Shown piece after piece: positions 2,678 through 42,883 of a stretch of 45,410 nucleotides of DNA. Position 1 is the stretch's first letter. Every line of letters starts with the position of its first letter. The DNA lies in contig JAHINX010000019.1 of assembly GCA_018895765.1 (NCBI GenBank), forward strand, positions 1-45,410, in the 5' to 3' direction. The notes under the pieces were generated by a model. It saw only the letters and a program-made list of their open reading frames with translations. It did not search any database and was not told where the DNA came from. This stretch comes from Patescibacteria group bacterium. Its GTDB lineage: Bacteria; Patescibacteriota; Patescibacteriia; GCA-002772895. The translations under genes were made by a program, and so were the position numbers.

Positions 2678-2811
2678 CCTTCTTCGCCCTTCGGGCTTCA
2701 AAGGGCACGGCAGATTTTTATACATAATACTGGATCCTAAATCAAGTTCAGGATGACAAATAATAAGTCGCGAAGCGACACAAAGTTACCTTACTACTTA
2801 CTACTAATTTT

Positions 2812-5800
2812 ATGTTTTGCCACCTCCACACACATTCTCACTATTCATTATTAGACGGACTGCCGAAGATTCCGGATATTGTTAATCGCGCGAAAGAGCT
2901 CGGAATGACAGCGGTCGCCCTTACAGACCATGGAACAACCTATGGTCTTATTGAGTTTTATAAAGCCTGTAAAAAAGCGGATATAAAACCAATTTTGGGA
3001 GTAGAGGCATATGTGGCGAGAAGAGGACATACCGACAAAGAGCCTGGAGTAGATACTAAGCCATATCACCTTGTGCTTCTTGCAAAAAATAAAGAGGGTT
3101 ATGAAAATATATTACGCCTTACATCAATAGCTCATCTTGATGGTTTCTATTATAAGCCCCGGATAGATAAAGAACTTTTGAAAAAATACGGCAAGGGAAT
3201 AATCGGGCTTTCCGCCTGTTTGAACGGCGAAATAGCGCGTGCGGTGCTCTCGGACAATATGGAAACAGCCGAACGGGCACTTGCAGAGTATAAAGATATT
3301 TTTGGCGAAGGAAATTTTTATTTGGAAATACAGCCTCAAACCGCCACAAAAAATAATGATCAGTCGCTTGCTAACGCGCGTCTTATAGAGCTTGCCAAAA
3401 AGACCAATACGCCTCTTGTTGCCACCAAAGATGTACATTATATAAACTTTGAAGATAAAGAGGCGCAGGATGCCCTTTTATGTATTCAGACGGGTACTAC
3501 TTTAGATAACCCAGATCGATTGAGTATGATGGATATTGATTGCTCTTTTTCTACAGAAGGGGATATGCGAGAGTGGTTTCCCGATACGCCCGAAGCAATA
3601 GAGAATACGGAAAAAATTGCCGAAGCTTGTAATGTAGAACTAGAGCTTGGCGGAAATATTTTGCCAAAATTTAAAACGCCAAATGGAAAATCGGATGTGG
3701 ATTATTTGCGCGAGCTTTGCGAAGAAGGTGTTAAAAAAAGATATAAAGAGATAACGCCGGAGGTCCGCGAACGTTTGGAATGGGAGCTTGATACTATCAA
3801 TAAAATGGGATTTGCTTCCTACTTTTTGATAGTTGCGGATTTTGTAAAATATGCAAAAGGCGAGGGGATAGTTGTCGGTCCGGGCCGTGGAAGCGCGGCT
3901 GGTTCAATTGTTTCTTACGTCCTTAGAGTTACCGACCTTGACCCAATACATTACAAATTACTTTTTGAAAGATTTTTAAATCCGGACAGAATATCAATGC
4001 CTGATATTGATATGGATTTTGCTGACATCAAACGTCATAAAGTTATTGAATATGTTATGGAAAAGTATGGGCGGGACAAGGTGGCCGGTATTATAACATT
4101 TGGAACAATGATGGCGCGCGCGGCAGTACGCGATGTGGGCAGGGTAATGGGTTTGCCATACGGAGAAGTGGACCGGATTGCAAAAATGATTCCAACTCCT
4201 GTGCAGGGCAGACATACACCTCTTTCACAGCATGTTGAAGAAGTAAAAGAGCTCCGCGAGCTATATAATGATAATCCGGATATAAAACGCCTTTTGGATT
4301 TGTCTATAAAAATGGAAGGAACCGTCCGCCACGCCTCACAGCACGCTTGTGCTGTGGTAATTGCCGATAAACCGCTTATGGAATATACTGCAATTCAAAA
4401 GGCACAGGGCGGAGATGTAGAAAGCGTAACCCAATATTCAATGAAGCCGATTGAAGATGTTGGCTTGCTTAAAATGGACTTTTTGGGGCTATCTAATCTT
4501 TCCATTATTCAGGATACGATAGAGATTGTTGAAGCAGTGAGTAAAATTGAAACAGGTGAAGGAACAAAAATTGATATAGAAAAAATACCACTTAATGATA
4601 AAAAGACATTTAATATTTTATCGCGCGCAGAGACGACTGGTGTTTTTCAACTTGAATCCTCTGGAATGAAGCGATATATAAAAGAACTCCAGCCAACAGA
4701 CATAGAAGACATTATTGCTATGGTGGCGTTGTATCGTCCGGGACCGATGCAATTTATTGAGTCATTTATTAATAGAAAACATGGCAGAGAAAAAATAAAA
4801 TATATGCATCCTTCTATGGAGAATGCATTGAAAAATACTTATGGTATTCCTGTTTATCAGGAACAGGTTATGCAAATATCAAAAGATATGGCAGGATTTA
4901 CTGGCGGAGAAGCGGATACTTTGCGTAAGGCGATGGGAAAAAAGATTGCTGAGTTGATGGCGAAGATGCGCGCAAAGTTTATTGCCGGCGCAACGACACA
5001 GGGTATATCAAAACAAATAGCAATAGAAGTTTTTAAGACATTAGAAGATTTTGCCGCTTATGGATTTAATCGATGTTTGACGGGAGATACGGAAGTTGTT
5101 GACATTAAAACAGGTAAAAAAGCAACGATAGTAGAACTTTATAAAGACAATAAATTAGTAAAAAATATTTTAGCATTGGAAGAAGGAACATTAAAATTTA
5201 AAAAAGCTAAGATAGAAAAAGTTTTTAGCAATGGAATAAAAGCAGTTTATGAACTAACTACGAAATTAGGCAGAAAAATTAAAGCAACCGACAATCATCC
5301 GTTTTTTATGTTTGATGGGTGGGTATTGCTCAAAGATTTAAAGATTGGGGATAAAATTGCCGTCCCAAGAGAATTAAATTTAAAACTAAATAGATATGAA
5401 ATAGATGATAAGCATTTGATTTTATTAGGTTATTTGATCGCTGAAGGCAATTTATGTCATCCCCATACATTTTATTTTTATTCTTCTAGTAAGGAAGAAA
5501 TAGACGACTATGTAAGTAATTTGGAGAGATTTGATAACACAAGAGCAACTATTAATCATAAAAAAAAGACTGCATCTATCCACACTGCGCGCAAGATTCT
5601 AAATCAAAAATCAGAAGCGATTGAATGGATTAGAAAAATTGGCGTTATGAATAAAAGAGCAACTGAAAAAGAATTGCCTGACTTTGTGTATGAGTTAAAC
5701 GAAAGGCAGCTGTCTTTATTGATATCAAAAATATTTCAAGGTGATGGATGTATCACTGTAAAGCGGAAACATCCTGAAATTTATTATGCTACCTCGTCAA

Positions 5801-7653
5801 TAAAGTTATCAAAGCAAATACATCATTTATTGTTGCGTTTGAATATTGTAAGTTCTATAAAAAAGAAAAAATTTAAATATCGGGGTGGTATTAAAATTGG
5901 GTATACCCTTCATATAAATCGTTATAGCAATATTGAAACATTTATAACAAAGATCGGCTGTTATTTTGTGGGACAGAAAAAAAGAGCGATAAAGCACATT
6001 TTAAAGACGCATCCTATATTAAATGGAACGATAAAAGCTAACGCGGCAAGAGGCAGTCGCGATATCGTACCGATAGAAATCTTAAGCCTAATAAAAAAAG
6101 AAATACAAAATAAGGGATATGCCTTGCGATCTTTTGCTAGGAAATATAGAATAGCAGAACGATTATTATTTGCCGATAAAATTAAGAAAGGGTTTTTGCG
6201 TGAAACCTTGGGCAATATAGCCGATATTTTAAAATCCAAAGAAATCAAAAAATATGCTAAAAGCGATATTTATTGGGACGAGATAGCCAGCATAAAATAT
6301 ACCGGAGAAGAAAAAACTTACGATTTAACAGTTTCTAAGTATCATAATTTTGTAGCCAATGATATTGTTGTGCATAATTCGCATGCAGCTTGTTATGCTA
6401 TGATCGCTTATCGCACAGCATATCTAAAAGCCAATTGGCCAAATTGTTTTATGGCGGCTTTGATGAATAGTGATTATGGAAATCTTGACCGAATTACAAT
6501 AGAAGTGGAAGAGTGTAAATCTTTGGGATTAGAAGTTCTTCCGCCTGATATTAATGAGTCATATTCAAAATTTTCTGTTGTGCCAAAAACAAATAAAATC
6601 CGTTTCGGTCTTTTGGCTATTAAAAATGTCGGAAGCGATATTGCGGATGCGATAATTAAAGAGCGCAAGGAAAATGGAAAGTTTGAATCATCGGAGGACT
6701 TTTTGGAACGTATTAATCATAAAAATTTGAATAAAAAATCTTTGGATGCGCTTGTGAAGTGCGGGGCAATGGATGCATTGGGCGCGAGGGCGGAGATGCT
6801 TCATAATATGCAGAAGATGCTGGATTTTAACAGAGAAATCCGTGCAGCAGCAGAAAAAACAACTGCCTGCCTTTTTGGCGGAGATGTGCTTTCCAAGCCG
6901 ACTTTGCAGATGGAACCGGCTGAACCGATAGAGAAAAAAGAAATTTTGGCTTGGGAAAAAGAGCTTCTCGGGCTTTATGTGAGCGCTCATCCGTTTTTGG
7001 ATATAAAGCCGTTAATAGCAGATTTAATTAAAAATATTGATGAGCTAAAAGAAATGAAAGACGGAAACTGGGTAAATGTTGCCGGCGTGATAACAAAAAT
7101 CCATAGCATTAGAACAAAAAAGAACGAACCGATGTGTTTTGTAACTATAGAAGATGGAATGTCTTCATTTGAGATCGTTGTTTTCCCTGGGGTGCTGGAA
7201 GGAACCCGTGAATTATGGCAAGAAGATAGTATTGTAATTGTCGGCGGGCGTCTTTCTTTTAAAGATGGGGAAATAAAAGTGCTGGCAAATAAGGTAGAGG
7301 TTGTGAGTGTTGATAATATGGAAAAAATAAAATCCGATTTTACATCGGTAAAATCGGATAAATCCCAAATCCCAAATCCCAAATCCCAACAAAACTCCAG
7401 CCCTCAAGTTCAAGATTCCGAAACTATTAGCGTCCCGACTCCCAATAGTGTGAAGGAATTTTTTAATGGTAATATTGCGCTAAAAGATGACGGATTATAT
7501 ATTTCTTTGCCAAAAACAATGAAGAAAGCGCAAGTGGAACATATAAAATTATTATTACAAAAACACCCGGGAGATACCCAAGTGTTTTTGGCTTTGCCGG
7601 ATAAGCCGGCAATTAAAACTAGTTTTAAGGTTGACGCGGAAAAATTTATTTAA
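2812..7653 (+). CDS. dnaE: DNA polymerase III alpha subunit (DnaE), intein-containing precursor
   Basis: PHP domain (HLHTHSHYSLLDG), GPGRGSAAGS, MPDIDMDF, OB fold and C-terminal domain. The conserved GFN(K/R)-SHAA motif is split by a 435-aa insert. Confidence 0.97.
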   Translation: MFCHLHTHSHYSLLDGLPKIPDIVNRAKELGMTAVALTDHGTTYGLIEFYKACKKADIKPILGVEAYVARRGHTDKEPGVDTKPYHLVLLAKNKEGYENILRLTSIAHLDGFYYKPRIDKELLKKYGKGIIGLSACLNGEIARAVLSDNMETAERALAEYKDIFGEGNFYLEIQPQTATKNNDQSLANARLIELAKKTNTPLVATKDVHYINFEDKEAQDALLCIQTGTTLDNPDRLSMMDIDCSFSTEGDMREWFPDTPEAIENTEKIAEACNVELELGGNILPKFKTPNGKSDVDYLRELCEEGVKKRYKEITPEVRERLEWELDTINKMGFASYFLIVADFVKYAKGEGIVVGPGRGSAAGSIVSYVLRVTDLDPIHYKLLFERFLNPDRISMPDIDMDFADIKRHKVIEYVMEKYGRDKVAGIITFGTMMARAAVRDVGRVMGLPYGEVDRIAKMIPTPVQGRHTPLSQHVEEVKELRELYNDNPDIKRLLDLSIKMEGTVRHASQHACAVVIADKPLMEYTAIQKAQGGDVESVTQYSMKPIEDVGLLKMDFLGLSNLSIIQDTIEIVEAVSKIETGEGTKIDIEKIPLNDKKTFNILSRAETTGVFQLESSGMKRYIKELQPTDIEDIIAMVALYRPGPMQFIESFINRKHGREKIKYMHPSMENALKNTYGIPVYQEQVMQISKDMAGFTGGEADTLRKAMGKKIAELMAKMRAKFIAGATTQGISKQIAIEVFKTLEDFAAYGFNRCLTGDTEVVDIKTGKKATIVELYKDNKLVKNILALEEGTLKFKKAKIEKVFSNGIKAVYELTTKLGRKIKATDNHPFFMFDGWVLLKDLKIGDKIAVPRELNLKLNRYEIDDKHLILLGYLIAEGNLCHPHTFYFYSSSKEEIDDYVSNLERFDNTRATINHKKKTASIHTARKILNQKSEAIEWIRKIGVMNKRATEKELPDFVYELNERQLSLLISKIFQGDGCITVKRKHPEIYYATSSIKLSKQIHHLLLRLNIVSSIKKKKFKYRGGIKIGYTLHINRYSNIETFITKIGCYFVGQKKRAIKHILKTHPILNGTIKANAARGSRDIVPIEILSLIKKEIQNKGYALRSFARKYRIAERLLFADKIKKGFLRETLGNIADILKSKEIKKYAKSDIYWDEIASIKYTGEEKTYDLTVSKYHNFVANDIVVHNSHAACYAMIAYRTAYLKANWPNCFMAALMNSDYGNLDRITIEVEECKSLGLEVLPPDINESYSKFSVVPKTNKIRFGLLAIKNVGSDIADAIIKERKENGKFESSEDFLERINHKNLNKKSLDALVKCGAMDALGARAEMLHNMQKMLDFNREIRAAAEKTTACLFGGDVLSKPTLQMEPAEPIEKKEILAWEKELLGLYVSAHPFLDIKPLIADLIKNIDELKEMKDGNWVNVAGVITKIHSIRTKKNEPMCFVTIEDGMSSFEIVVFPGVLEGTRELWQEDSIVIVGGRLSFKDGEIKVLANKVEVVSVDNMEKIKSDFTSVKSDKSQIPNPKSQQNSSPQVQDSETISVPTPNSVKEFFNGNIALKDDGLYISLPKTMKKAQVEHIKLLLQKHPGDTQVFLALPDKPAIKTSFKVDAEKFI
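5074..6378 (+). mobile_element. Intein with LAGLIDADG homing-endonuclease domain inside DnaE
   Basis: Begins CLTGDTEVV right after ...AAYGFNR and ends ...DIVVHN, followed by SHAACYAM. LAGLIDADG-type motifs are LLGYLIAEGN and LISKIFQGDGCI. Excision restores GFNR-SHAACYA. Confidence 0.9.
7360..7387 (+). repeat. (AAATCCC)x4 perfect heptanucleotide microsatellite inside dnaE
   Basis: Four exact units encode KSQIPNPKSQ in the linker before the DnaE C-terminal domain. Confidence 0.95.
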
Positions 7654-9636: not shown

Positions 9637-10758
9637 ATGTTAACTCAGAAAAAGGGAGGAGTTTTCAAAAAAATAGGTATATTGTTCGTAAGCTCTATTC
9701 TGGTGCTATTTTTTATCGTGATGTATATGGCCCTGTCCCGTGCGACGATTGTTATAGAGCCAAAGGAAGAAACAATCAGCGCTGATTTGTTTGTAACGGT
9801 AAAATCTGCAAACCTTACGAAAGGTGATATCTTGGGCAAAATGGCAACAACAACAATATCCCGCGAAGCATCTTATACTGTAAGCGGAGACGACCGCGAG
9901 GTTCCGGCTAAGGCCGAAGGCGAAGTGATTATTTATAATAAATACGGCAAAGACCAGCAGTTAATTGCCACTACAAGGTTTTTATCGGACAATGGTGTTT
10001 TATTCAGGCTGGTAAATGGAATAAATGTTCCGGCTGGAAAGAGTGTTACAGCGCTTATACGGGCGGATAGCGAAGGAAAAGAGGGAGAGGTCGCGATATC
10101 CCACTTTACAATTCCTGGATTAAGCAACGATTTGCAAAAATATATTTATGGAGAGAGCGAAAAAGTGATGACAGGTGGAACTAAAAAGGTTGCAGCCCTA
10201 ACACAAGAGGCTATTGATGAGGCAGTAGATAACCTAAAATTAACCCTGATAACTGAAGCAAAAGAAAAGCTAAAAGATAAAATTACCTTAGACAGTACTT
10301 TTGTCGGAATTGCTTATAGTGGCGATATTAAAGATGGTAAAATAAGCGCTAAGCCGGGAGATACCGTTGACAGTTTTAAAGTTAGTATAATAATGGACGT
10401 TGTTGGCATTGCATATAGTAAAGATCTGGAAGAACAGGCAGCAAAGACTTTGGCGGGCATTATTTATTCCGACAGAAAGCTTACGTCATCCAATCTTCTA
10501 AGTCTGCAACCGGAAGTTGAAACTGTTGATCTTGAAGCTGGAGCTGCAAATATGAAAGTCGCGATAGAAGGAAAAACAATCATAAATTCCAATAGTCAAA
10601 TTTTTGATAAGGAAAAAATGGCCGGAATGTCGGCAGAAGAAGTAAAAGAATATTTGAGCCAATATGCGGGCGTAGAAAGCGTAGAAATAAAATTTTTTCC
10701 GTTTTGGCTTGATAAGGTGCCAAAATTGAGGGATCATATAAAGGTTGTAGTAAGATAA
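9637..10758 (+). CDS. Hypothetical membrane-anchored protein (373 aa)
   Basis: N-terminal TM helix (IGILFVSSILVLFFIVMYMAL), then a beta-rich soluble region. Confidence 0.65.
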   Translation: MLTQKKGGVFKKIGILFVSSILVLFFIVMYMALSRATIVIEPKEETISADLFVTVKSANLTKGDILGKMATTTISREASYTVSGDDREVPAKAEGEVIIYNKYGKDQQLIATTRFLSDNGVLFRLVNGINVPAGKSVTALIRADSEGKEGEVAISHFTIPGLSNDLQKYIYGESEKVMTGGTKKVAALTQEAIDEAVDNLKLTLITEAKEKLKDKITLDSTFVGIAYSGDIKDGKISAKPGDTVDSFKVSIIMDVVGIAYSKDLEEQAAKTLAGIIYSDRKLTSSNLLSLQPEVETVDLEAGAANMKVAIEGKTIINSNSQIFDKEKMAGMSAEEVKEYLSQYAGVESVEIKFFPFWLDKVPKLRDHIKVVVR

Positions 10759-10764
10759 TATAAA

Positions 10765-10795
10765 TAGCGTATAGCGATTAGCATTTAGCGTTTAG
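10765..10795 (+). repeat. Heptamer stop-codon array, TAG x5 at exact 7-nt spacing (TTAGCG family copy 1)
   Basis: TAG at 10765, 10772, 10779, 10786 and 10793, between the 9637 ORF stop and thrS. Confidence 0.9.
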
Positions 10796-10804
10796 TTAAT
10801 GTTG

Positions 10805-10819
10805 TGTCGCTTTGCGACA
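10805..10819 (+). promoter_or_regulatory. TGTCGC-ttt-GCGACA hairpin 8 nt upstream of the thrS start
   Basis: The same GTCGC-N3-4-GCGAC hairpin is seen upstream of dnaE (2767-2779) and the SEDS gene (34021-34036). Confidence 0.4.
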
Positions 10820-16082: not shown

Positions 16083-16137
16083 ACCGGGATTTTTTAGAGC
16101 AATAATTATTGTGTAGAGAGTTTTTTTTCTACTCTTC

Positions 16138-16219
16138 TCCCCCTTTGGAAAAGGGGGATTAAGGGGGATTTAATAATAAATTTATAAATCCCTCCTGCCC
16201 TCCCTTTTCCAAAGGGAGG
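16138..16219. repeat. Triple-hairpin palindromic element (family B, copy 1)
   Basis: H1 is TCCCCCTT tggaa AAGGGGGA. H2 is GGGGGATTTA..TAAATCCCTCC. H3 is CCTCCCTT ttcca AAGGGAGG. It lies between convergent miaA and gatB. Confidence 0.85.
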
Positions 16220-16241
16220 AACTTGCTACAATGTTTAATTT

Positions 16242-17789: not shown

Positions 17790-17794
17790 AAGAA

Positions 17795-17825
17795 TAGCGT
17801 TTAGCGTTTAGCAATTAGCGTTTAG
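17795..17825. repeat. Heptamer stop-codon array (TTAGCG family copy 2)
   Basis: TAG at 17795, 17802, 17809, 17816 and 17823 on the + strand. TAA is at 7-nt spacing on the - strand (TTA at 17801, 17808, 17815, 17822). Confidence 0.9.
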
Positions 17826-17878
17826 TGAATATAATATAATTTTATGGGTTTTGGGAGGATTTGTCAAAAAATAATTTT

Positions 17879-17899
17879 AGGAGGTCGGGAACCAGAAAA
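17879..17899. repeat. Solo, internally deleted right end of the family C palindromic element
   Basis: AGGAGGTCGGGA|ACCAGAAAA equals 19481-19492 joined to 19522-19530. Confidence 0.7.
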
Positions 17900-17927
17900 A
17901 AACAGAAATCCGCCCTTGGGCGGATTT
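17896..17927 (-). terminator. Rho-independent terminator of the 17967 membrane-protein gene
   Basis: AAATCCGCCC tt GGGCGGATTT with a U-run on the minus strand. Confidence 0.75.
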
Positions 17928-17934
17928 TACCATA

Positions 17935-17958
17935 CTACACGCTACATACTACATGCTA
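17935..17958 (-). repeat. GTAGNNN heptamer trailer, TAG x4 on the minus strand
   Basis: CTA at 17935, 17942, 17949 and 17956, just downstream of stop 17967-17969. Confidence 0.85.
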
Positions 17959-17966
17959 CTTTCTCA

Positions 17967-18689
17967 TTATTTCCTAACTTCTCTAAATACAATTGTTCCG
18001 ACGATGGCATAAATCGGGGTAAAAAAGGCGGCGATTAGGTCGGAAACAAATAAAATAATCAGATTTAGGCCGAGTCCAGCTTCTTGCGTGTCTATTACCG
18101 ATTGCCCAATTATAAGTCCAATAAGATTAAAAATCCCTGCCAATGCCAGGTAAGCGATAATCGCCCAAAATATATTAGGCACGACAAGACGTCCAAAAAT
18201 CGGCCAAAATCTTCCGCGTGAGAGTTCGTGGCTTTCTTTCAAAAGTTCCATTCCTTTCTTTTTTTCCAGGATTGCGATGTACATTACAAAAGCATACCAG
18301 ACGGTAAAAATCACGCCCGGAACAATAAATAATATAAATCCGCCAGCTGTAATCAACCCGGCTAAAATACTGATAAAAATTGCCGGCCAATAAACTCCAA
18401 AAATATCTTTTAAGCTGATATCCGGCTTTTTATTGCTTAAAAACTTGTCTGTATAATATATGATGGCGATAAGCACGACGAAATTTACAAGATATGCTAA
18501 AAAGGAGATAAAGCCGGAAATTAAAAATTTTGCGATATTCGGCAATGTTAGGAATTGGTCAATTAAAACCGCGCTCAAACTCGTCAAAGCGGAAAGAATA
18601 AAAATAGCTCCTAAAAAAGGAAGATATTGTTTAAATTTTGAAGTATATGTCTCCCAGGAAAGACGTATTATCTCAGCAATTTTTAACAT
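17967..18689 (-). CDS. Hypothetical polytopic membrane protein (240 aa)
   Basis: About six hydrophobic helices. No specific family recognised. Confidence 0.7.
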   Translation of the reverse strand: MLKIAEIIRLSWETYTSKFKQYLPFLGAIFILSALTSLSAVLIDQFLTLPNIAKFLISGFISFLAYLVNFVVLIAIIYYTDKFLSNKKPDISLKDIFGVYWPAIFISILAGLITAGGFILFIVPGVIFTVWYAFVMYIAILEKKKGMELLKESHELSRGRFWPIFGRLVVPNIFWAIIAYLALAGIFNLIGLIIGQSVIDTQEAGLGLNLIILFVSDLIAAFFTPIYAIVGTIVFREVRK

Positions 18690-19397: not shown

Positions 19398-19410
19398 ATT
19401 TCTTTAATTT

Positions 19411-19530
19411 TTTTCTGGTTCCCGACATCAATACAAAATTTTTCCCGAGTCCCGACCTCAAAACAAATACGGGGAACTTTAGGAGGTCGGGACTCGGGAA
19501 AAGAACTATAGAATGTTGGGAACCAGAAAA
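19411..19530. repeat. Nested perfect inverted-repeat element (family C)
   Basis: Outer arms are 13 bp (19411-19423 and 19518-19530). Inner arms are 19 bp (19441-19459 and 19483-19501). Both pairs are perfect. Confidence 0.9.
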
Positions 19531-19534
19531 GATT

Positions 19535-19575
19535 TGAACTTTGAAATTTATTGAAAATTGATCATTGATAATTGA
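19535..19575 (+). repeat. Heptamer array with TGA x6 (TGAAAAT-like units)
   Basis: TGA at 19535, 19542, 19552, 19559, 19566 and 19573. Confidence 0.85.
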
Positions 19576-19584
19576 AAATTGTTT

Positions 19585-24517: not shown

Positions 24518-24600
24518 ACCCTCCTTTGGAAAAGGAGGGTTGGGGAGGATTTATGAATATATAATTAAATCCCCCTTACTCCCCCTTCTCCGAAGGGGGA
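24518..24600. repeat. Triple-hairpin palindromic element (family B, copy 2)
   Basis: H1 is ACCCTCCTT tggaa AAGGAGGGT. H2 is GGGGAGGATTTA..TAAATCCCCC. H3 is TCCCCCTT ctccg AAGGGGGA. H3 supplies the last 8 codons of the 24576 CDS. Confidence 0.85.
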
Positions 24601-25175
24601 AAAGTATTTATAAATCCGTCAATCTTTTTTTTGAATTCTTCCATCGAGCCGGTGTTTACAATTGTACAGTCAGCCATGGCGATTGGGCCGGCTTTATCCA
24701 GGTTTTCTATTTCCGCAAAGTCGCGCGCCCTCGCTTCTTCTTTGCTAAAATTTCTGTTCCGCAAATCAATATCATCTTTATCTGAAAATCTTTTTGAAAT
24801 CCGTTCATAGCGGAGTTCGGGCGGAGCATAGATAGCAACTATGGTTAGGCGCTCGTTATAATAATCTTTTAAAATTTTATATTCATCCCAGCTGTAAAGT
24901 CCGTCGGCAACAAGATTTTTATCTTCCAAAACTTTATCAAATTTTGGGATATTTAAAGTTGCATAAGCGCCCATTCCATGCTCTTTGCGTATTGCTTCGC
25001 GGACTTCTCTTTCGTTTTTTTCATTGGGTTCTAATCCGCGTTCTTTTATGATATCTAGAGTAATTTGTCCAAAACGGACAAAACCCCATCCGTGCGCAAC
25101 AAACGCGTCTGCTAAAATACTTTTGCCGGAACCGCACATCCCGACGATGGCAATTATTTTATTTTTATTATTCAT
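24576..25175 (-). CDS. P-loop nucleoside/nucleotide kinase-like protein (adenylate-kinase / dephospho-CoA-kinase-like)
   Basis: Walker A IVGMCGSGKS near the N-terminus, 199 aa. Substrate not inferable. Confidence 0.55.
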   Translation of the reverse strand: MNNKNKIIAIVGMCGSGKSILADAFVAHGWGFVRFGQITLDIIKERGLEPNEKNEREVREAIRKEHGMGAYATLNIPKFDKVLEDKNLVADGLYSWDEYKILKDYYNERLTIVAIYAPPELRYERISKRFSDKDDIDLRNRNFSKEEARARDFAEIENLDKAGPIAMADCTIVNTGSMEEFKKKIDGFINTFPPSEKGE

Positions 25176-25193
25176 AATTTATTTAACTGAACC

Positions 25194-25217
25194 CTAATTG
25201 CTAATCGCTAAACGCTA
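25194..25217. repeat. Heptamer stop-codon array (TTAGCG family copy 3, inverted)
   Basis: CTA at 25194, 25201, 25208 and 25215 (TAG on the minus strand). TAA at 25195, 25202 and 25209 on the plus strand. Confidence 0.9.
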
Positions 25218-25219
25218 TT

Positions 25220-25795
25220 TTAATATATTTGCCCGAAATTATTGGGCGGTTCTTTTTTCTGCTCTATTGGTACATTCTCTTCCAATATAACTGCTTTCTC
25301 GTCTATTTTTTCTATATTTTTTTCAAACAATCTTTTTATATTATTATTCCATTCTTGATTGGGCTCGTAAAAGACAACCTCAAGTCCGGCTGTTTTTAAA
25401 TAATCTATTGCCTGTGAGTTGCGGTAGATTGTTTCAATAACGATTCTTTTAATTCCCGCGGCAACAATATATTTACAGCAATGGATACAGGGCGAATAAA
25501 GCGCGTAAAGAGTAGCACCTTCGGTAGTTTGACCGGCAACTGTGGCGGCTTGCAAAATCGCGTTATGTTCGGCATGGATTGTGCGGACGCAGTGCCCTTC
25601 TTCCATAAGATGTCCGGCTTCGCTGTCGCAATGTGGAAGCCCGGGTGGAGAACCATTATATCCTGTGGAAATAATTCTTTTATTTTTAACCAAAACCGCG
25701 CCAGCGCGAAGTCTGTCGCAAGTGCTTCTGGTTGCGACAATGCGGGCGATTGCCATAAAGTAGTCGTCCCATGAAGGACGGATAAAATTTTGCAT
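25220..25795 (-). CDS. comEB: Deoxycytidylate (dCMP) deaminase
   Basis: HAEHNAI and PCIHCCK zinc-binding motifs, with a ~40-aa C-terminal tail. Confidence 0.88.
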   Translation of the reverse strand: MQNFIRPSWDDYFMAIARIVATRSTCDRLRAGAVLVKNKRIISTGYNGSPPGLPHCDSEAGHLMEEGHCVRTIHAEHNAILQAATVAGQTTEGATLYALYSPCIHCCKYIVAAGIKRIVIETIYRNSQAIDYLKTAGLEVVFYEPNQEWNNNIKRLFEKNIEKIDEKAVILEENVPIEQKKEPPNNFGQIY

Positions 25796-26209: not shown

Positions 26210-26950
26210 TTAGATGCTCAATTTTATTCCAGGGCCCATGCTTGTGGATAAAACCAAACCCTTAATAAATACTCCTTTTGAAGACGCAGGTTTTGATTTT
26301 TTCAAAACAGTAATAAAGGCCTCAATATTTTCTTTTAGCGCATTATCGTCAAATGATAATTTTCCAAGAGCAACGTGCAGATTGGCGGTATCGTCATTTT
26401 TAAAAACGATTTTTCCTTTTTTCAATTGCTCTACAGCGTCTTTTATTTTTGTTGTGATCGTATCATTTTTAGGAGACGGCATCATGCCCTTAGGTCCCAG
26501 TATTTTTGCCAACGGCGCCATTTTTGGCATTATATCAGGCGTAGCAACCGCTACATCAAAATCAATTTTTCCCGATTGTTTTATTTGGTTGATGAGTTCT
26601 TCGCCTCCGACAATGTCGGCTCCGCTTGCTTTCGCATCTTTTTCATTTTTTTCGCTTGTAAAAACTGCGATGCGGAGGGTTTTGCCTGTTCCATAAGGGA
26701 GAACGACTGTTCCGCGGACTTGTTCTTCGCCTTTTTTTGGATCAATACCAAGACGAGCATGAAGCTCCACTGATGGATCAAATTTTACCTTAGAAGTTTC
26801 TCTCGCGAATTTTATTGCTTCTTCAACAGAGTATGTTTTGCTTTTATTAAATCCCGTGTTTTCTTCCTGCTTTTTTAGGATTTCTTCTTTTGGCACTTCT
26901 GTTTTTGCTACTATTTTTTTGTTTTTTTGTTTTTTTGTTTTTTTTGCCAT
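26210..26950 (-). CDS. rplA: Ribosomal protein L1 with lysine-rich N-terminal extension
   Basis: GTVVLPYGTGKTLRIAVF and a full L1 fold-length sequence. Confidence 0.93.
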   Translation of the reverse strand: MAKKTKKQKNKKIVAKTEVPKEEILKKQEENTGFNKSKTYSVEEAIKFARETSKVKFDPSVELHARLGIDPKKGEEQVRGTVVLPYGTGKTLRIAVFTSEKNEKDAKASGADIVGGEELINQIKQSGKIDFDVAVATPDIMPKMAPLAKILGPKGMMPSPKNDTITTKIKDAVEQLKKGKIVFKNDDTANLHVALGKLSFDDNALKENIEAFITVLKKSKPASSKGVFIKGLVLSTSMGPGIKLSI

Positions 26951-26969
26951 ATTTATTTCGTGGTAAAGC

Positions 26970-27003
26970 GTTGTGGATAAGTCTATAACGAGTTATCAAC
27001 AAC
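26970..27003. promoter_or_regulatory. Imperfect 11-bp inverted repeat GTTGTGGATAA / TTATCAACAAC in the rplK-rplA spacer
   Basis: 10 of 11 arm positions pair. It contains a perfect and a one-mismatch DnaA-box 9-mer. Confidence 0.5.
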
Positions 27004-27010
27004 TCCCACA

Positions 27011-27031
27011 AATGTTAAATGTTAAATGTCA
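27011..27031. repeat. Heptamer array (AAATGTT)x3 just downstream of the rplK stop
   Basis: aaatgtt aaatgtt aaatgtc. The TTAA core gives TAA on both strands. Confidence 0.8.
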
Positions 27032-27035
27032 GGTG

Positions 27036-27458
27036 TTATTTTACTTCAATTCCCATTTGTCTTGCCGTTCCTTCTATAGTTTTCATTGCCGCTTCAATAT
27101 CGTTTGCATTTAAGTCAGGCATTTTTTTCTCGGCAATTTCTTTTATCTGCGCTTTTGTGACGGTACCAACTTTTTCTGCCAGCGGTTTTCCAGAACCTTT
27201 TTTAATTCCGGCCGCTTTTTTTAAAAGTTCTGACGCAGGTGGAGTTTTTAGCTTGAATGTATAACTCCTGTCTTCATAGACAGAAATTTCTACAGGAATT
27301 ATTTCTCCGCGCATATCTTTTGTCGCATCATTGTATTTTGCGCAGAACTCGGCGATATTAAGTCCATGCTGACCCAATGCCGGACCAACCGGAGGCGCTG
27401 GATTTGCCGCGCCGGCAGGAATTTGCAATTTTATAACTGTTTTTATTTTTTTTGCCAT
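27036..27458 (-). CDS. rplK: Ribosomal protein L11
   Basis: [27 protein letters not shown]. Confidence 0.97.
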
Positions 27459-27534
27459 AATAATTATTTTTTACAAGATATTATAGAAGCCGTTTTTGTT
27501 ATAACGATAATATCTATTTTATTTTTTGAATTTA

Positions 27535-28077
27535 TTATATCTTTTTTACCTGAAGAAAATCTAATTCTACGGGTGTTTCACGTCCAAATACATTTACAAG
27601 TACTTTGACTTTTCCACGCTCATTATCAACATTATCAATCTTTCCTTCAGAATTTTTAAACGGACCATCTATAATGCGTACTGCGTCGCCGATTTCAACA
27701 TCAATCTTATATTGTGGCTCGTCCACGCCCATTCTTTTTTGCAAAGCTTTTATTTCTTCTTCAGAAAGTGGAGTAGGTATTGTTCCTGTTCCGATAAACC
27801 CTGTTACGTTTGGAGTGTTTCTGACCATATACCAGCTATCGTCAGTCACCATCATATCAACCAGGACATAGCCGGGGAATATTTTTTCCGTTACTACTTT
27901 TCTTTTTCCATTTCTAATCTTTATTTTTTTTTCGGTTGGAATCAGCACATCAAAAATTTTGTCATGCATATCGTATGACTCGATGCGTTGTTTTAAATTT
28001 TCGGTAACGTTTTCTTCGTATCCGGAATAAGTGTGGATAGCATACCACTGTCTTCCGCGTTCTAATTGTTTGGCCAT
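27535..28077 (-). CDS. nusG: Transcription termination/antitermination factor NusG
   Basis: WYAIHTYSGYE NGN domain and KOW motif GDAVRIIDGPFKNSEGKI. The start is taken at MAKQLERG (28077). Confidence 0.93.
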   Translation of the reverse strand: MAKQLERGRQWYAIHTYSGYEENVTENLKQRIESYDMHDKIFDVLIPTEKKIKIRNGKRKVVTEKIFPGYVLVDMMVTDDSWYMVRNTPNVTGFIGTGTIPTPLSEEEIKALQKRMGVDEPQYKIDVEIGDAVRIIDGPFKNSEGKIDNVDNERGKVKVLVNVFGRETPVELDFLQVKKI

Positions 28078-28083
28078 ATAAAT

Positions 28084-28114
28084 TAGCTTGTAGGAATTAG
28101 CTTGTAGCCTATAG
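28084..28114 (+). repeat. Heptamer stop-codon array, TAG x5
   Basis: TAG at 28084, 28091, 28098, 28105 and 28112, between the secE stop and the nusG start. Confidence 0.9.
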
Positions 28115-29567: not shown

Positions 29568-32891
<3,324 letters not shown>

Positions 32892-33983: not shown

Positions 33984-34011
33984 GATTTCAGATTTATGAT
34001 TTAAGATTTTA
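33984..34011. repeat. Heptamer array (GATTTNN)x4
   Basis: gatttca gatttat gatttaa gatttta, with stop triplets on both strands. Confidence 0.8.
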
Positions 34012-34020
34012 TTATTGATC

Positions 34021-34036
34021 TGTCGCGCAAGCGACA
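34021..34036 (+). promoter_or_regulatory. TGTCGC-gcaa-GCGACA hairpin upstream of the SEDS gene
   Basis: 6-bp stem with a GNRA-type loop, 27 nt before ATG 34063. Confidence 0.4.
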
Positions 34037-35154: not shown

Positions 35155-35206
35155 AATCTTGACTATGTTTAAATAATGTGCTATTCTTATAAATAATCTA
35201 ACAAGC

Positions 35207-35230
35207 TAAAACCTAATACCTAAAATCTAA
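35207..35230 (+). repeat. Heptamer stop-codon array, TAA x4
   Basis: TAA at 35207, 35214, 35221 and 35228 (also 35194 and 35199), ending 4 nt before the rplY ATG. Confidence 0.88.
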
Positions 35231-35914: not shown

Positions 35915-36982
35915 ATGAAAAATAAGATAGATATAAAATTAGCAGTTAGCTTTTGTTTATTTTGTTTGATAGCTTTAACGGCTGTAAGCCTTGTTTTATG
36001 GCAAGGTCTCCGGCCGTTTTTTGTTTCTGAAAAAATTAGCATTATTCTTTCTGAAAAGCCAAAAGCTTGCGCTCTGTATCGCTTGCTTGATGGAGTCTGT
36101 TTAGGAGATGGAGAGACGGAAAAATATCCGATTGCGGTTATGATAGATAATAAATATGAAGCCAGGCCATGGTCCGGACTTTCTTTTGCCGGACTTGTTT
36201 ATGAAGCGCCGGTTGAAGGCGGAATAACAAGATTTTTGGCAGTATTCTCTACTGATCGGACGATAGATAAAATAGGGCCTGTAAGAAGTGTGCGCCCATA
36301 TTTTATTGATTGGGCGATGGATATCGGTGCAATGCTTTTTCATGTCGGCGGTTCTCCGGAAGCGCTTGGTATTATAAATGGAGACGCCGATATTAAGCAA
36401 TTTGATTTGGATCAGTATTTTGGCGGGGTTTATTATTGGAGAAGCGAAGATAGGATTGCTCCGCATAATGTTTATACCTCAAGTGAACGTTTGGATAAAG
36501 CGAGAGTTGCAAAACTTTCCGAAGAACCGACAGTTGATTTTGCTTCTTGGCAGTTTAAAGAAGACGTTTATGAATCGGAAAGAGGAGAGGACGGCGCGAC
36601 AATTAAAATAGAGTTCAGCAACTCCAGCACTTATGATGCGGATTGGACGTATGACAGAAATAAAAATATTTATATTAGGCAGGATGGCGAATTAGCCGCG
36701 CAGGATTTGGACGGCTCGCTTATTATTGCAAAAAATATAGCTGTGCTTGAAGCCGATATTTTGATTATTGATTCAATGAGCCGCAGAAAAATTACAACAA
36801 TAGGGAGTGGATATGCGTTGATTTTTCAGGATGGAAAAAAAATAGAAGCGGTTTGGGAGAAGGATGATAGATGGAACAGGCTCCGTTTTTATGACAAAAA
36901 CGGAGATGAAATAAGATTTAACCGTGGAACAACCTGGGTAGAAGTAATGTCGGATTTGGAAAAAGTAGTTGGTAGTATGTAG
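35915..36982 (+). CDS. DUF3048-family protein (YerB-like), membrane-anchored
   Basis: N-terminal TM helix, with YPIAVMIDN...ARPWSGLSFAGLVYEAPVEGGITRFLAVF as I recall for DUF3048. Confidence 0.65.
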   Translation: MKNKIDIKLAVSFCLFCLIALTAVSLVLWQGLRPFFVSEKISIILSEKPKACALYRLLDGVCLGDGETEKYPIAVMIDNKYEARPWSGLSFAGLVYEAPVEGGITRFLAVFSTDRTIDKIGPVRSVRPYFIDWAMDIGAMLFHVGGSPEALGIINGDADIKQFDLDQYFGGVYYWRSEDRIAPHNVYTSSERLDKARVAKLSEEPTVDFASWQFKEDVYESERGEDGATIKIEFSNSSTYDADWTYDRNKNIYIRQDGELAAQDLDGSLIIAKNIAVLEADILIIDSMSRRKITTIGSGYALIFQDGKKIEAVWEKDDRWNRLRFYDKNGDEIRFNRGTTWVEVMSDLEKVVGSM

Positions 36983-36989
36983 TAAGTAG
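36966..36989 (+). repeat. GTAGNNN heptamer trailer, TAG x4, including the real stop of the DUF3048 gene
   Basis: TAG at 36966, 36973, 36980 (the stop) and 36987. Confidence 0.88.
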
Positions 36990-37081
36990 TATGGGAAAAA
37001 TGACGTAAAAAGCATCATTTTATTATTGGAAAAATTTATGATTTGTGGTAATGTATTGGTTAGGTAAAAGAGGAGGGCAAA

Positions 37082-37264
37082 GTGACAAAGGAAGATTTCG
37101 CAAAATTAATAAGAGAGGTATTGAAAGATAAGGAGTTATCTGAAAAGCTTTGCGATGAAGTCGGTGTTAGCTTGAGTACACTGGGGAGGTGGTCAAAGGA
37201 TGGGCATAAATTGCCGCAAGCAGTAAGAGACCGAGTAGTAAATTGGTTAAGTAACAAAAAATAA
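37082..37264 (+). CDS. Mini HTH protein (60 aa, Cro/YdaS-like), GTG start
   Basis: VGVSLSTLGRWSKDGHKLP helix-turn-helix pattern. SD AAGAGGAGGG upstream and a terminator downstream. Confidence 0.5.
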   Translation: MTKEDFAKLIREVLKDKELSEKLCDEVGVSLSTLGRWSKDGHKLPQAVRDRVVNWLSNKK

Positions 37265-37288
37265 ATGACGCAATAAAGCGTCATTTTA
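37265..37288 (+). terminator. Rho-independent terminator
   Basis: ATGACGC aataaa GCGTCAT followed by TTT. Confidence 0.7.
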
Positions 37289-37306
37289 TATTATCCATAC
37301 TGCACA

Positions 37307-37323
37307 CTACTTACTACGTACTA
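37307..37323 (-). repeat. GTAGNNN heptamer trailer on the minus strand, including the real prmC stop
   Basis: CTA at 37307, 37314 (the stop) and 37321. About 25 of 30 nt are identical to 17930-17959. Confidence 0.85.
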
Positions 37324-38285
37324 CATTTCATTACTCGCCATTTACCCGAAAGGTCTTTTGTAAATTCTATTTTTTTTGGTTTGAGTATTTTTTGTGCCAG
37401 TTTTTCTATCGCTGGTTTTTGTTTTGCGCCGATTTCTATTATTAATGTAATATTATTAATTTTTATATCGCGGATTTGTTCAAATAATTTTTTGTAAATC
37501 TCTGTGCCGGTTTTTCCTCCGACCAGCGCCCCCTTTGGTTCGTGGCGCTTTACTTCGGGTTGAGCTTTGGTCCATTCTTCTTGGGAGAGGTAGGGGAGAT
37601 TGGCGGTAATTACTATCGGGTTCCCGACTCCCGATAGTTTATTTTTCGAGTTTTTCACAGATTTTTCCGCTAAGCTTAGTATATCAAGAGATGGTTTCTT
37701 AATGTACAGTAAATCACCTTTTTTTATTGTGATTTTTGCGCCGAGCGCGTGGGCATTTTTTTGCGTCAGCGCTATTGCCTTGGGGCTGATTTCTATTGCC
37801 AACACGCGGGTGCGCGGGAATTCTTTTTTCAAAGTGATTGCAATTGCTCCGCTTCCAACCCCTACATCAACTATTTTTAAACTATTGGAAGCCAGGCTTC
37901 CAATAGTTTTTTTTGCGACGTCGATTAGGGTCTCGGTGTCCGGGCGGGGGATGAGGACGGCCGGAGAGACAAAAAAGTTTCGGCTGTAAAATTCTTTTTT
38001 GCCTGTGATGTAGGCGATTGGCTCGCGCTTTCTGCGACGAGCGATAAATTTTTTGTATTTTGCAATTTGCGCGGAAGTTAATTTTTTTTCAGGGTAAGTG
38101 AATAAAAATTCTTTTGGCTTGCCGAGCACAAAGGAAAGCAAAATTTCCGCATCCAAGAAAGCGGTATTAAAGGTCGACTTTAAATACCCCTTTCTTTTTT
38201 CCGTGTTTTTCGTAGTCCCGACAAGTCGGGACGAAGAATCGGTGAGATTTTTTACGCCCCATTTTAGGGCCTCGCTTATTGTCAT
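37314..38285 (-). CDS. prmC: Release-factor glutamine N5-methyltransferase (PrmC/HemK) with two ~22-aa inserts
   Basis: VDVGVGSGAIAI SAM motif and an NLPY variant of NPPY, located upstream of prfA. Confidence 0.88.
   Translation of the reverse strand: MTISEALKWGVKNLTDSSSRLVGTTKNTEKRKGYLKSTFNTAFLDAEILLSFVLGKPKEFLFTYPEKKLTSAQIAKYKKFIARRRKREPIAYITGKKEFYSRNFFVSPAVLIPRPDTETLIDVAKKTIGSLASNSLKIVDVGVGSGAIAITLKKEFPRTRVLAIEISPKAIALTQKNAHALGAKITIKKGDLLYIKKPSLDILSLAEKSVKNSKNKLSGVGNPIVITANLPYLSQEEWTKAQPEVKRHEPKGALVGGKTGTEIYKKLFEQIRDIKINNITLIIEIGAKQKPAIEKLAQKILKPKKIEFTKDLSGKWRVMKCST
37613..37637. repeat. In-frame palindrome CTATCGGG-ttcccgact-CCCGATAG inside prmC
   Basis: Encodes LSGVGNPI. It shares the 10-mer GGTTCCCGAC with 19417-19426. 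Confidence 0.85.
38215..38232. repeat. In-frame palindrome GTCCCGAC-aa-GTCGGGAC inside prmC
   Basis: Encodes SRLVGT. It has the same 8-mer arms as the family C inner arms (19449-19456). Confidence 0.85.
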
Positions 38286-39791: not shown

Positions 39792-39845
39792 AAAAATTAA
39801 CTTTAAACTTTTATCTTTGTTAGCTTTTTAAAGCTGTATAAAAAT

Positions 39846-41264: not shown

Positions 41265-41267
41265 GTG

Positions 41268-41298
41268 TAACTTGTAACTTGTAACTTGTAACTCGTAA
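41268..41298 (+). repeat. Heptamer stop-codon array (TAACTTG)x5
   Basis: TAA at 41268, 41275, 41282, 41289 and 41296, following the rpsB stop at 41262. Confidence 0.92.
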
Positions 41299-41331: not shown

Positions 41332-41364
41332 ATTACGAATTACGGATTACAGATTACGGATTAC
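41332..41364 (-). repeat. Heptamer array (ATTACNN)x5 giving TAA x5 on the minus strand
   Basis: TTA at 41333, 41340, 41347, 41354 and 41361. Confidence 0.9.
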
Positions 41365-42046: not shown

Positions 42047-42071
42047 ATGTGCAGAATCCAATCTCGCACAT
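42047..42071 (+). repeat. REP hairpin copy 1 (ATGTGCAGAATCCAATCTCGCACAT)
   Basis: Lies 24 nt upstream of the RAYT start, with ATGTGC/GCACAT arms. Confidence 0.85.
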
Positions 42072-42094
42072 AATAAAAATTAATAAAAAGTTTT

Positions 42095-42781: not shown

Positions 42782-42805
42782 TGTGCAGAATCCAATCTCG
42801 CACAT
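42781..42805 (+). repeat. REP copy 3, starting at the last base of the RAYT stop
   Basis: Identical 25-mer. Confidence 0.9.
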
Positions 42806-42836
42806 TATGTATTTATTTTTTTGTTATTGCCTTCTC

Positions 42837-42861
42837 GTGTGCGAGATTGGATTCTGCACAT
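42837..42861 (-). repeat. REP copy 4, inverted (24 of 25)
   Basis: GTGTGCGAGATTGGATTCTGCACAT. It forms an inverted doublet with copy 3. Confidence 0.88.
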
Positions 42862-42883
42862 AGGAAGGGATGTAAGAAGTTAT

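Follow-up and report, generated by a model that had tools for sequence, protein, structure and literature searches.

Why should short direct repeats with a period of exactly seven nucleotides gather at the gene boundaries of a compact bacterial genome, and do the stop triplets found in so many of their units have a purpose? The question is raised by contig JAHINX010000019.1 of the Patescibacteria group bacterium assembly GCA_018895765.1, whose positions 1 to 45,410 (forward strand) make up the stretch of DNA analysed here and are referred to throughout as the window. A first-pass annotation, made from the sequence without database searches, described tandem heptamers with a stop triplet at a fixed offset in every unit and, as its lead idea, took them to be selected as frame-independent stop pads between tightly packed genes. 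We find that the arrays are authentic, specific to period 7 and concentrated at gene ends, that their stop triplets follow from base composition, and that they are probably heptanucleotide microsatellites resembling the short tandemly repeated repetitive (STRR) sequences of cyanobacteria.

The strength of the period was assessed with a test that makes no assumption about the unit: any non-homopolymer 3-mer recurring at least four times at a fixed spacing was counted, with 100 dinucleotide-preserving shuffles as the null. At a spacing of 7 the window contains 14 such loci, versus a shuffle mean of 0.36 and a maximum of 2 in any of the 100 shuffles; the spacings 4-6 and 8-14 give 0-2 loci each, which is the level of chance. 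The 4-mer version of the test (at least four occurrences at spacing 7) returns 10 loci where 0.01 are expected, and the spacers alone, 5,773 nt after curation, hold 10 period-7 arrays versus 0.10 expected, with none at periods 5, 6, 8, 9 or 10. In the output of Tandem Repeats Finder (TRF) for the window, period 7 accounts for 18 of 65 rows and period 14 for 3 more. Altogether there are 14 strict loci composed of head-to-tail 7-nt units and two weaker ones (Table 1). Each array is built around an invariant core of 3-5 bases, the other unit positions differing from copy to copy, and arrays occupy ~6% of the spacer DNA of the window.

In these respects the first-pass annotation had read the DNA well, since period 7 is far commoner than 6 or 8, the unit sequence varies from locus to locus, and the arrays that it listed lie where it placed them, with two exceptions. 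At 19535-19573, described as six TGA triplets, an array is present but not in the register proposed, a 3-nt shift producing TGA spacings of 7, 10, 7, 7 and 7, and the clean array spans 19550-19581. The supposed degenerate example at 44881-44932 is not of period 7 and consists of three TGACCAA copies 22 and 19 nt apart. In the two fivefold TAG arrays at 28084-28112 and 17795-17823 the TAGs are antisense to the flanking genes, nusG, secE and gatB all being encoded on the minus strand. The list was also incomplete, having overlooked 7360-7389, 2790-2805, 39797-39818 and the full extent of 37299-37322.

The window arrays are not assembly artefacts, because two further assemblies reproduce the sequence. 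Over 13.9 kb of the window, covering 10 arrays, the metagenome-assembled genome (MAG) GCA_022012845.1 is 99.98% identical, with zero insertions or deletions, and positions 26916-28078 are identical in a separate Logan assembly of run SRR11548473. The three single-nucleotide polymorphisms (SNPs) that distinguish GCA_022012845.1 over the 13.9 kb all fall outside arrays, and the possibility that SNPs cluster inside them was rejected.

The host belongs among the Patescibacteria, also known as the Candidate Phyla Radiation (CPR): the nearest relatives of its ThrS (55-62% identity) and of its NusG are all Patescibacteria/CPR MAGs, which rules out the cyanobacterial host that the STRR analogy and the TGACCAA copies at 44881 had suggested. 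By Pfam scan the housekeeping genes of the window include dnaE, gyrB, thrS, miaB, miaA, gatB, tmk, thyX, secE-nusG-rplK-rplA, ftsW and rplY, and the further genes prmC, prfA, rpmE, rpsB-tsf, a Y1 transposase and gap; no Rfam family or tRNA was found in the window. Between 13 and 15 of the arrays are intergenic, and 12 of the 13 that lie wholly in spacers have a start or stop codon no more than 8 nt away. Under uniform placement of each array within its own spacer 3.7 would be expected there, and none of 200,000 simulations reaches 12, so that the location at gene boundaries noted in the first-pass annotation is a true positional bias. At the DUF3048 gene and at prmC the overlap is such that the array supplies the stop codon. 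In the gatB spacer the order is stop, array, terminator, promoter, array and start; a sigma-70-like gatB promoter (minus strand, TTGACA at 17867 and TAAAAT ending at 17839) is separated from the ATG by one of the arrays (copy B in Table 1). Many window genes have a -10 box close to the ATG, and a Shine-Dalgarno-like motif precedes only 6 of 37 genes, in keeping with the description of these genes as lacking such sites. The neighbours of the arrays (thrS, gatB, nusG, rplA, rplY, tsf and dnaE among them) are housekeeping genes and not the surface or virulence genes whose promoters or ORFs carry phase-variable simple sequence repeats (SSRs), with expression switched by copy number.

Table 1. Heptamer arrays of the window in order of position, with their relation to neighbouring genes (ORF, open reading frame; L083 and L085 are loci of relatives).
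Unit or family	Copies or units	Position	Strand	Placement and remarks
CTTACTA	2.3	2790-2805		6 nt before dnaE start; just 3' of hairpin GTCGCGAAGCGAC (2767-2779)
AAATCCC	4.3	7360-7389	+	3' part of dnaE ORF, reads KSQIPNPKSQ; sole array within a coding sequence
Family 1, copy A	TAGCGTA TAGCGAT TAGCATT TAGCGTT TAGTTAA	10762-10799	+	6 nt past stop of ORF 9637-10758; 31 nt before thrS start; followed by hairpin GTCGCTTTGCGAC (10806-10818)
Family 1, copy B		17790-17828	+	Fills gatB leader; gatB ATG 5 nt away; gatB mRNA strand CTAAACG
Family 2, copy E	GAGAAA GTAGCAT GTAGTAT GTAGCGT GTAGTAT GGTAAAA (minus strand)	17925-17965	-	7 nt past stop of membrane-protein gene 17967-18689; just before terminator hairpin 17927-17906
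ATTGAAA	4.6	19550-19581		3 nt past stop of thyX (minus-strand gene)
Family 1, copy C		25183-25220	-	Between dCMP-deaminase stop and AAA-kinase start
AATGTTA	3	27011-27031		rplK-rplA spacer, 4 nt past rplK stop; exact in independent Logan assembly
TAGNNNN	5 (also 14-nt period at 100%)	28084-28114		secE-nusG spacer, 6 nt before nusG ATG; mRNA strand CTANNNN
GATTTNN	4	33984-34011		Upstream of ftsW, followed by hairpin GTCGCGCAAGCGAC (34022-34035); only array more than 8 nt from a coding-sequence end
CTAAAAC	3.6	35206-35230		rplY leader, ends 4 nt before ATG; partly present in L083 and L085
Family 2, copy D		36959-36999	+	DUF3048 gene runs in; third TAG (36980-36982) is its stop codon
Family 2, copy F		37290-37330	-	Overlaps prmC stop codon (37316-37314); followed by hairpin and T-run
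TTAACTT	3.1 (80% matches)	39797-39818		5 nt before rpmE start
TGTAACT	4.7	41266-41298		1 nt past rpsB stop; left arm of imperfect inverted pair
ATTACGG	4.7	41332-41364		8 nt before tsf start; right arm of the same inverted pair

The same phenomenon is found in related genomes. A set of 2.10 Mb was assembled from 80 thrS loci of species genomes, 80 nusG loci of metagenomes and the window itself, 12.5% of it being intergenic according to a crude ORF map. It contains 171 intergenic period-7 arrays and 84 located elsewhere, which corresponds to a ~14-fold higher density in intergenic DNA, and intergenic arrays of periods 4, 5, 8, 10 and 11 number 7-29 each. A count over 1.31 Mb gave 140 loci at period 7 and 13-20 at periods 4, 5, 8, 10 and 11. 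With TRF, periods 7, 14 and 21 have intergenic counts of 66, 60 and 12 in the relatives (2.1 Mb), other periods yielding 3-20. Even exact two-copy duplications are in excess at period 7, with 194 observed versus ~55 predicted from the decay across periods 4-6. The distribution is patchy (chi-square 366 with 104 degrees of freedom): 38 of the 105 loci of at least 8 kb have no array, the richest have 5-6 per 10 kb, and density is unrelated to G+C content. Nor does it correlate with Shine-Dalgarno usage (rho = -0.02), and a link between arrays and Shine-Dalgarno poverty was dropped, all of these lineages being poor in such sites (~25%). Among the 255 arrays there are 155 distinct canonical units.

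If selection had favoured the arrays for their ability to arrest ribosomes of all frames with a stop every 7 nt, stops should exceed what the composition of the units provides. For stop-bearing units the arithmetic does hold, two genes of the window take their stop codon from an array, and arrays abut stop codons 2.5 times as often as under uniform placement (55 of 164, versus 22), 3' ends being abutted at least as often as 5' ends. The stop content, however, matches the expectation from composition. In the window 13 of 14 units contain a stop on one strand or the other, versus 11.2 after permuting the letters of each unit (P = 0.18), and among the 171 intergenic arrays 84.2% do so, versus 83.1 +/- 2.4% after the same permutation; a small residue is seen in the per-strand stop fraction (0.640 versus 0.573 +/- 0.021). 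An apparent enrichment over random intergenic 7-mers (84% versus 63%) vanished once unit composition was fixed. What the units favour is TA-containing triplets generally, since TAG/CTA is enriched 2.15-fold (the highest value) and TAA/TTA 1.53-fold, and the non-stop pair TAC/GTA, at 1.94-fold, as much as the stops; G/C-rich triplets are under-represented, with GGG/CCC at 0.26-fold.

A translation device should also be oriented, and the arrays are not. Stops in co-directional spacers show no strand bias (sense fraction 0.69, antisense 0.66), and counts on the sense strand reveal none for any triplet (20 TAG versus 21 CTA, 52 TAA versus 46 TTA); sense and antisense stops are equal, 24 versus 24, in arrays 0-10 nt past a stop codon and 28 versus 27 in those 0-12 nt before a start, and the presence of stops in all three frames is just as symmetric. 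Several window arrays also fit poorly with pads: on the mRNA strand those at 41332 and 19550 are free of stop triplets, and the TAGs counted at 17795 and 28084 lie on the other strand, the mRNA reading CTAAACG, which does contain TAA, in the former and CTANNNN, with a stop in some units only, in the latter. Moreover, most relatives make do with spacers of 1-12 nt at the same junctions. The stop codons in the arrays thus stem from A+T-rich composition and are not a translation device; the lead idea of the first-pass annotation is not borne out, the outcome being the one that it had itself named as damaging to it, namely stops at the rate expected of AT-rich DNA, and we consider selection for stop pads highly improbable. 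Conversely, the fact that stop-bearing units occur only between genes can be understood because a period that is not a multiple of three and carries a stop would not survive inside a gene. The unit of the array within dnaE, AAATCCC, contains a stop triplet on neither strand; its complement, TTTAGGG, is the telomere unit of plant type, and the array encodes part of the DnaE C-terminal tail. Taken together, the results show that the arrays are a feature of the DNA, specific to periods 7, 14 and 21 and with no orientation relative to transcription.

A comparison with a syntenic congener, L083, which aligns to window positions 16840-39190 with main high-scoring segment pairs at 82-84% nucleotide identity, shows how rapidly the arrays turn over. 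L083 has 1 strict array in the aligned region, versus 10 in the window. The gatB-leader array (17795) is absent from L083, where the promoter-like block beside its site is unchanged in every base; at the site of the 17935 array (TAATTCG)x2 replaces the family 2 sequence; and the tmk-thyX spacer, 187 nt long in the window and containing the 19550 array, measures 16 nt in L083. Past the dCMP-deaminase stop L083 reads simply TAA-T-ATG, versus a 44-nt spacer consisting mostly of array (25194) in the window, the L083 gene that follows resembling the window kinase weakly. The 27011 array is represented by about one unit copy, and the nusG-leader array is the only one recognisably shared. Among 76 relatives the secE-nusG spacer is in most cases 3-12 nt long, and in ~10 it contains unrelated heptamer arrays directly before the nusG ATG. 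The idea of a conserved array upstream of thrS was rejected as well, since relatives have a T-box-like sequence, nothing or unrelated arrays in that place. Their absence in L083 and the unrelated arrays at the nusG and thrS sites of relatives mark the arrays as dispensable and labile, arising anew time and again at places of the same kind. As a separate observation on thrS, ~60-110 nt upstream of the gene many Patescibacteria relatives (L010, L012, L026, L029, L036, L046, L059 and L068) combine a GTGGAACCGCG-type sequence with a terminator-like hairpin after it; these leaders look like T-box leaders, and the window thrS has the heptamer array and a small hairpin instead.

Within this genome, of which 63 kb were read in total (17.4 kb of extra flank added one array), some arrays are copies of one another. 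The three members of family 1 (TAGCGTT) are 86-89% identical and lie 7-14 kb apart in both orientations. They depart from the consensus unit in the same way at corresponding units (G to A in the third, for instance, and TAGTKAA as the last), and their similarity ends sharply on both sides. The three members of family 2 (GTAGYRT) have common flanks and are in every case placed on a stop codon and closely followed by a terminator hairpin. Neither family was found in any of the 160 other loci, and analogous dispersed array families exist in other array-rich genomes. Copies within a family resemble each other more closely than the coding orthologues of the window and L083 do (~83%), which implies recent copying, and both L083 sites open to comparison, the TAA-T-ATG junction among them, lack a copy.

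These features could indicate that the arrays are miniature mobile elements or otherwise actively dispersed ~40-nt blocks, spread by a transposase-like or recombination activity, with slippage playing a secondary part. The high identity, common variants, sharp edges and double orientation of family 1, the common flanks of family 2, the absence of both families from the other loci and from the comparable L083 sites, and the like pattern in other genomes all fit such a model, and the window does contain a Y1 transposase, similar to the REP-associated tyrosine transposases (RAYTs; REP, repetitive extragenic palindromic), with flanking repeats of its own. On the other hand, family 1 has no terminal inverted repeats, target-site duplication or hairpin, no clean pair of filled and empty sites was found, the repeat flanking the transposase gene is unrelated in sequence to the arrays, and each family amounts to three copies within the 63 kb read. 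Ectopic gene conversion between existing arrays could, in addition, mimic dispersal. We regard active dispersal as unlikely.

The reuse of genome-specific families at several sites would also be expected of binding arrays, in which an oligomeric protein with a 7-nt register reads a short core and regulates the adjacent housekeeping genes. HutP antiterminator sites, which have the form (UAG-N4)x3, provide a model, and TAG at an exact 7-nt spacing does occur in leaders of the window (at 10765, at 25194 on the minus strand, and others). The invariant cores of 3-5 nt, the TAG/CTA core present in 8 of 14 window arrays and leading the triplet enrichment, the retention of the TAG core in the L083 nusG leader while the spacer bases diverged, and a sharing of units above the composition expectation are all consistent with recognition by a protein. 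The resemblance to HutP sites is incomplete, however, since two of the TAG arrays (17795 and 28084) have the triplet on the antisense strand, several follow stop codons and many arrays have no TAG; and no HutP-family protein or other candidate domain was found among the 40 window proteins scanned. More generally, the 155 different units across relatives, the random orientation relative to transcription (which argues against RNA binding in particular) and the absence of arrays from most orthologous sites of a congener speak against a binding function, and a core with variable flanking positions also arises by duplication of diverged units, as the 14-nt periods indicate. A role as binding arrays is, on balance, decidedly doubtful.

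Folding offers a further candidate role, in which inverted pairs of arrays would be building blocks of RNA or DNA hairpins acting as terminators, attenuators or processing sites. Neighbouring arrays are inverted copies of one family in 25 of 67 pairs, versus 14% of random pairs, and such pairs are predicted to fold into regular 6-bp helices split by single mismatches, both in the rpsB-tsf spacer, where the stem is followed by TTTTT (UUUUU in the transcript), and at positions 18112-18187 of the relative L092 (z = -4.7). Most arrays are single, however, 17 of the 67 neighbouring pairs are direct, and in the rpsB-tsf stem the sense strand has no advantage, with -22.8 kcal/mol and z = -1.9 versus -23.7 kcal/mol and z = -4.0 for the antisense strand. 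Sense-specific G-U pairing was accordingly rejected for that pair and, as the two strands fold alike, nothing points to a role specific to RNA. The 17795 and 17935 arrays, moreover, bracket a terminator and a promoter, so that the two arms are not on one transcript, and conventional GC-rich terminators are present besides. The hairpin interpretation has, in our estimate, a slim chance of being correct. The arrays might still serve as unstructured ribosome landing pads, another candidate role in the first-pass annotation, though selection for unstructured RNA gains no support: 54% of arrays have zero predicted folding energy, yet shuffled versions of them are no more folded (P = 0.28), and array density, as noted above, is independent of Shine-Dalgarno usage.

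The explanation that we favour, with moderate confidence, is that the arrays are STRR-like heptanucleotide microsatellites, produced by slippage and block copying and surviving in unconstrained leaders and trailers. Strand slippage would generate the arrays and alter their length, favouring a 7-nt register for which a cause in the footprint of the polymerase has been suggested by earlier authors; in this genome whole ~40-nt blocks would in addition be copied to new spacers. Arrays would persist where a compact genome has unconstrained bases, that is, in the gap between a stop codon and its terminator hairpin and in the leader separating a start codon from the promoter or stop before it, leaders being presumably free of sequence requirements in a largely Shine-Dalgarno-independent organism. 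Their closeness to gene ends would follow from the occupation of mid-spacer positions by terminator and promoter, with only trailers and leaders without a Shine-Dalgarno site left unconstrained. Longer leaders and trailers, an occasional stop codon and an occasional hairpin stem would then be side effects and not a designed function. Slippage hot spots had been listed among the candidate roles in the first-pass annotation, which on this point agrees with the best-supported explanation.

Several observations weigh against this explanation. Slippage by itself gives no reason for the number 7, and that step is borrowed from the literature. The arrays sit tighter on coding ends than unconstrained space strictly requires, and the sharp-edged block copies need a copying mechanism beyond slippage. 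Cores such as TAG are invariant where other positions vary, and in the nusG leader the comparison with L083, a manual count from the alignment, finds 13 of 15 core positions kept and 9 of 20 non-core positions. Units recur between unrelated genomes 2.2 times as often as composition predicts (195 versus 87 +/- 9), and 42 of the 67 pairs of arrays lying within 400 nt of each other are related (25 inverted, 17 direct), versus ~29% of random pairs. Finally, there is no length polymorphism in the sole comparison within one population, which covers 13.9 kb and 10 arrays and reveals only 3 SNPs. The identical internal order of variants, the absence at congener sites and the flush placement suggest a second reading: ~40-nt modules would be actively copied into the few free nucleotides beside start and stop codons, and a protein responsible for copying or binding them would set the 7-nt register by its footprint. 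This is not a likely outcome. Were it true, such modules would be mobile or recognised elements of a new kind, and the long-standing heptamer bias of bacteria might find its explanation in them.

The arrays have practical and general implications. For annotation they mark gene ends and sometimes provide stop codons, and they should not be read as regulatory "stop pads". Array DNA amounting to ~6% of the spacers in this window, from a lineage of very small, compact genomes, means that the heptamer bias is not a luxury of large genomes; a comparison of array-rich with array-poor congeners offers a way to find the responsible factor and so to ask why seven; and the block-copy families, for which slippage gives no account, are a hint of some mechanism of dispersal.

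Other elements of the window were recorded along the way, some of them next to arrays. A hairpin GTCGC-N3-4-GCGAC occurs at 2767-2779, 10806-10818 and 34022-34035 (3 matches versus 0.08 expected), each time adjoining an array in either orientation, so that a composite of hairpin and array precedes dnaE, thrS and ftsW; the hairpin possibly acts as a regulatory site common to these genes. The Y1 (IS200-like) transposase gene at 42095-42781 has as its best NCBIfam match the REP-associated tyrosine transposase, at 37 bits and thus below the cutoff of 80, and TGTGCAGAATCCAATCTCGCACA, a 23-nt imperfect palindrome, is present in four copies around it, at 42048, 42265 and 42782 (+) and 42838 (-), giving a RAYT/REP-like arrangement (42048-42862). 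A 30-36-nt element, TTTAGGAGGTCGGGAACCAGAAAA, is found at 17867-17902, 19408-19443 and 19470-19530, in direct and inverted copies in the gatB and tmk-thyX spacers; the whole tmk-thyX spacer is absent from L083. An 82-nt G/C-rich self-complementary element (CCCCCTTTGGAAAAGGGGGATT...) occurs at 16134-16221 and 24520-24604, the two being 75-83% alike and matching in both senses, the first copy between the convergent miaA and gatB genes and the second between the APH and AAA-kinase genes (both on the minus strand), where it enters the 3' end of the kinase gene; these look like long bidirectional terminator hairpins.

The motif TTGTGGATAAG, which contains the perfect DnaA-box 9-mer TGTGGATAA, occurs in 9 copies with at most 1 mismatch, all on the plus strand, versus 0.82 expected (2523, 12625, 15427, 20137, 21966, 26242, 26971, 33964 and 41782); those at 26971 and 33964 are conserved in L083. 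These copies may represent a strand-polar motif or a set of sites for DnaA or a transcription factor. GC skew is positive over most of the window. Inteins are present in dnaE (2812-7653) and gyrB (29568-32885), that of dnaE with a LAGLIDADG domain, and it is inside dnaE that the contig of GCA_022012845.1 terminates. Between DUF3048 and prmC an ORF of ~60 residues (~37114-37293, plus strand) begins with GTG and is preceded by AAGAGGAGGG, which makes it one of the few genes with a strong Shine-Dalgarno motif; its product resembles helix-turn-helix proteins. L083 seems to lack this stretch, for which the ORF list has only an opposite-strand ORF.

How do the arrays compare with systems already described? 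The TGACCAA copies at 44881-44932, which we take to be an STRR2-like unit, are not tandem and stand apart from the arrays proper. Like the REP/REPIN-RAYT systems (PMC3116915), the arrays are short, genome-specific, dispersed intergenic elements, often in inverted pairs, and a RAYT-like gene is present in the window; REPs, however, are imperfect palindromes, whereas the arrays are direct repeats of which only pairs form stems, and the gene at 42095-42781 is flanked by TGTGCAGAATCCAATCTCGCACA and not by heptamers. With the GGGAATC and GGGGA(T/C)T repeats of Xanthomonas and Nostoc (PMC4692102) the arrays share an intergenic location, variation of length and sequence at the same junctions and some inverted pairs. 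Those repeats are G-rich and capable of forming G-quadruplexes, whereas units of the window type are low in G/C runs. Inverted pairs and rapid variation between close relatives have been reported for heptamer repeats before (Rehm 2015, PMC4692102).

A further parallel is offered by the TAACTGA repeats of marine Beggiatoaceae, some Cyanobacteria and Bacteroidetes (PMC4679880), which likewise form 2-6 tandem heptamers near starts and in ribosomal-protein operons; they lie just upstream of start codons, and their stops in all frames confine them to non-coding DNA (MacGregor 2015, PMC4679880). That system, however, has a single unit with a strong forward orientation upstream of starts, in contrast to the many units, the lack of orientation bias and the equal use of 3' and 5' ends seen here. 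No TAACTGA tandems were found in the fetched loci, which include copies of about half of the window from the same genome (L081, L163 and L164), and none of the array units in the window, which was not itself pattern-searched for it, is TAACTGA.

That the first-pass annotation knew of no described function leaves out of account a literature on heptanucleotide repeats (PMC4679880, PMC4692102). An excess of heptamers among the long SSRs of many prokaryotes was reported by Mrazek, Guo and Shah (2007), as cited in PMC4679880 and PMC4692102, and slippage combined with a polymerase footprint has been put forward to account for it (PMC4679880, PMC4692102). According to these secondary accounts, the preference for period 7 over its neighbours, the exclusion of non-triplet periods from coding sequence, the scattered phylogenetic distribution and the proposed role of slippage are all in common with the present arrays. 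The survey predates CPR genomes, and the taxa singled out for repeats of 5-11 nt were Burkholderia, Cyanobacteria, Actinobacteria and Xanthomonas (PMC4679880, on the survey); the arrays described here differ in their small, compact host, and block-copy families and tight abutment to starts and stops do not figure in the secondary descriptions.

The phenomenon is thus already known in kind, and its occurrence in CPR/Patescibacteria is, as far as the literature searchable here goes, previously unreported, no relevant account of heptamer or other simple sequence repeats in these bacteria having been found there. Heptanucleotide repeats have remained unexplained since the cyanobacterial STRRs and the 2007 survey. 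It is to the STRRs that the arrays come closest: three tandem heptanucleotides were described in Calothrix PCC 7601 (PMC4692102), and STRRs have been used for fingerprinting (PMC5088731). The STRRs of Calothrix and Nostoc and the arrays of the window alike consist of tandem 7-nt units in genome-specific families dispersed through intergenic DNA, with no assigned function; what sets the latter apart is a Patescibacteria host, A+T- and TA-rich units such as TAGCGTT, GTAGTAT and TGTAACT, and a disposition in 3-5 copies flush against the ends of coding sequences.

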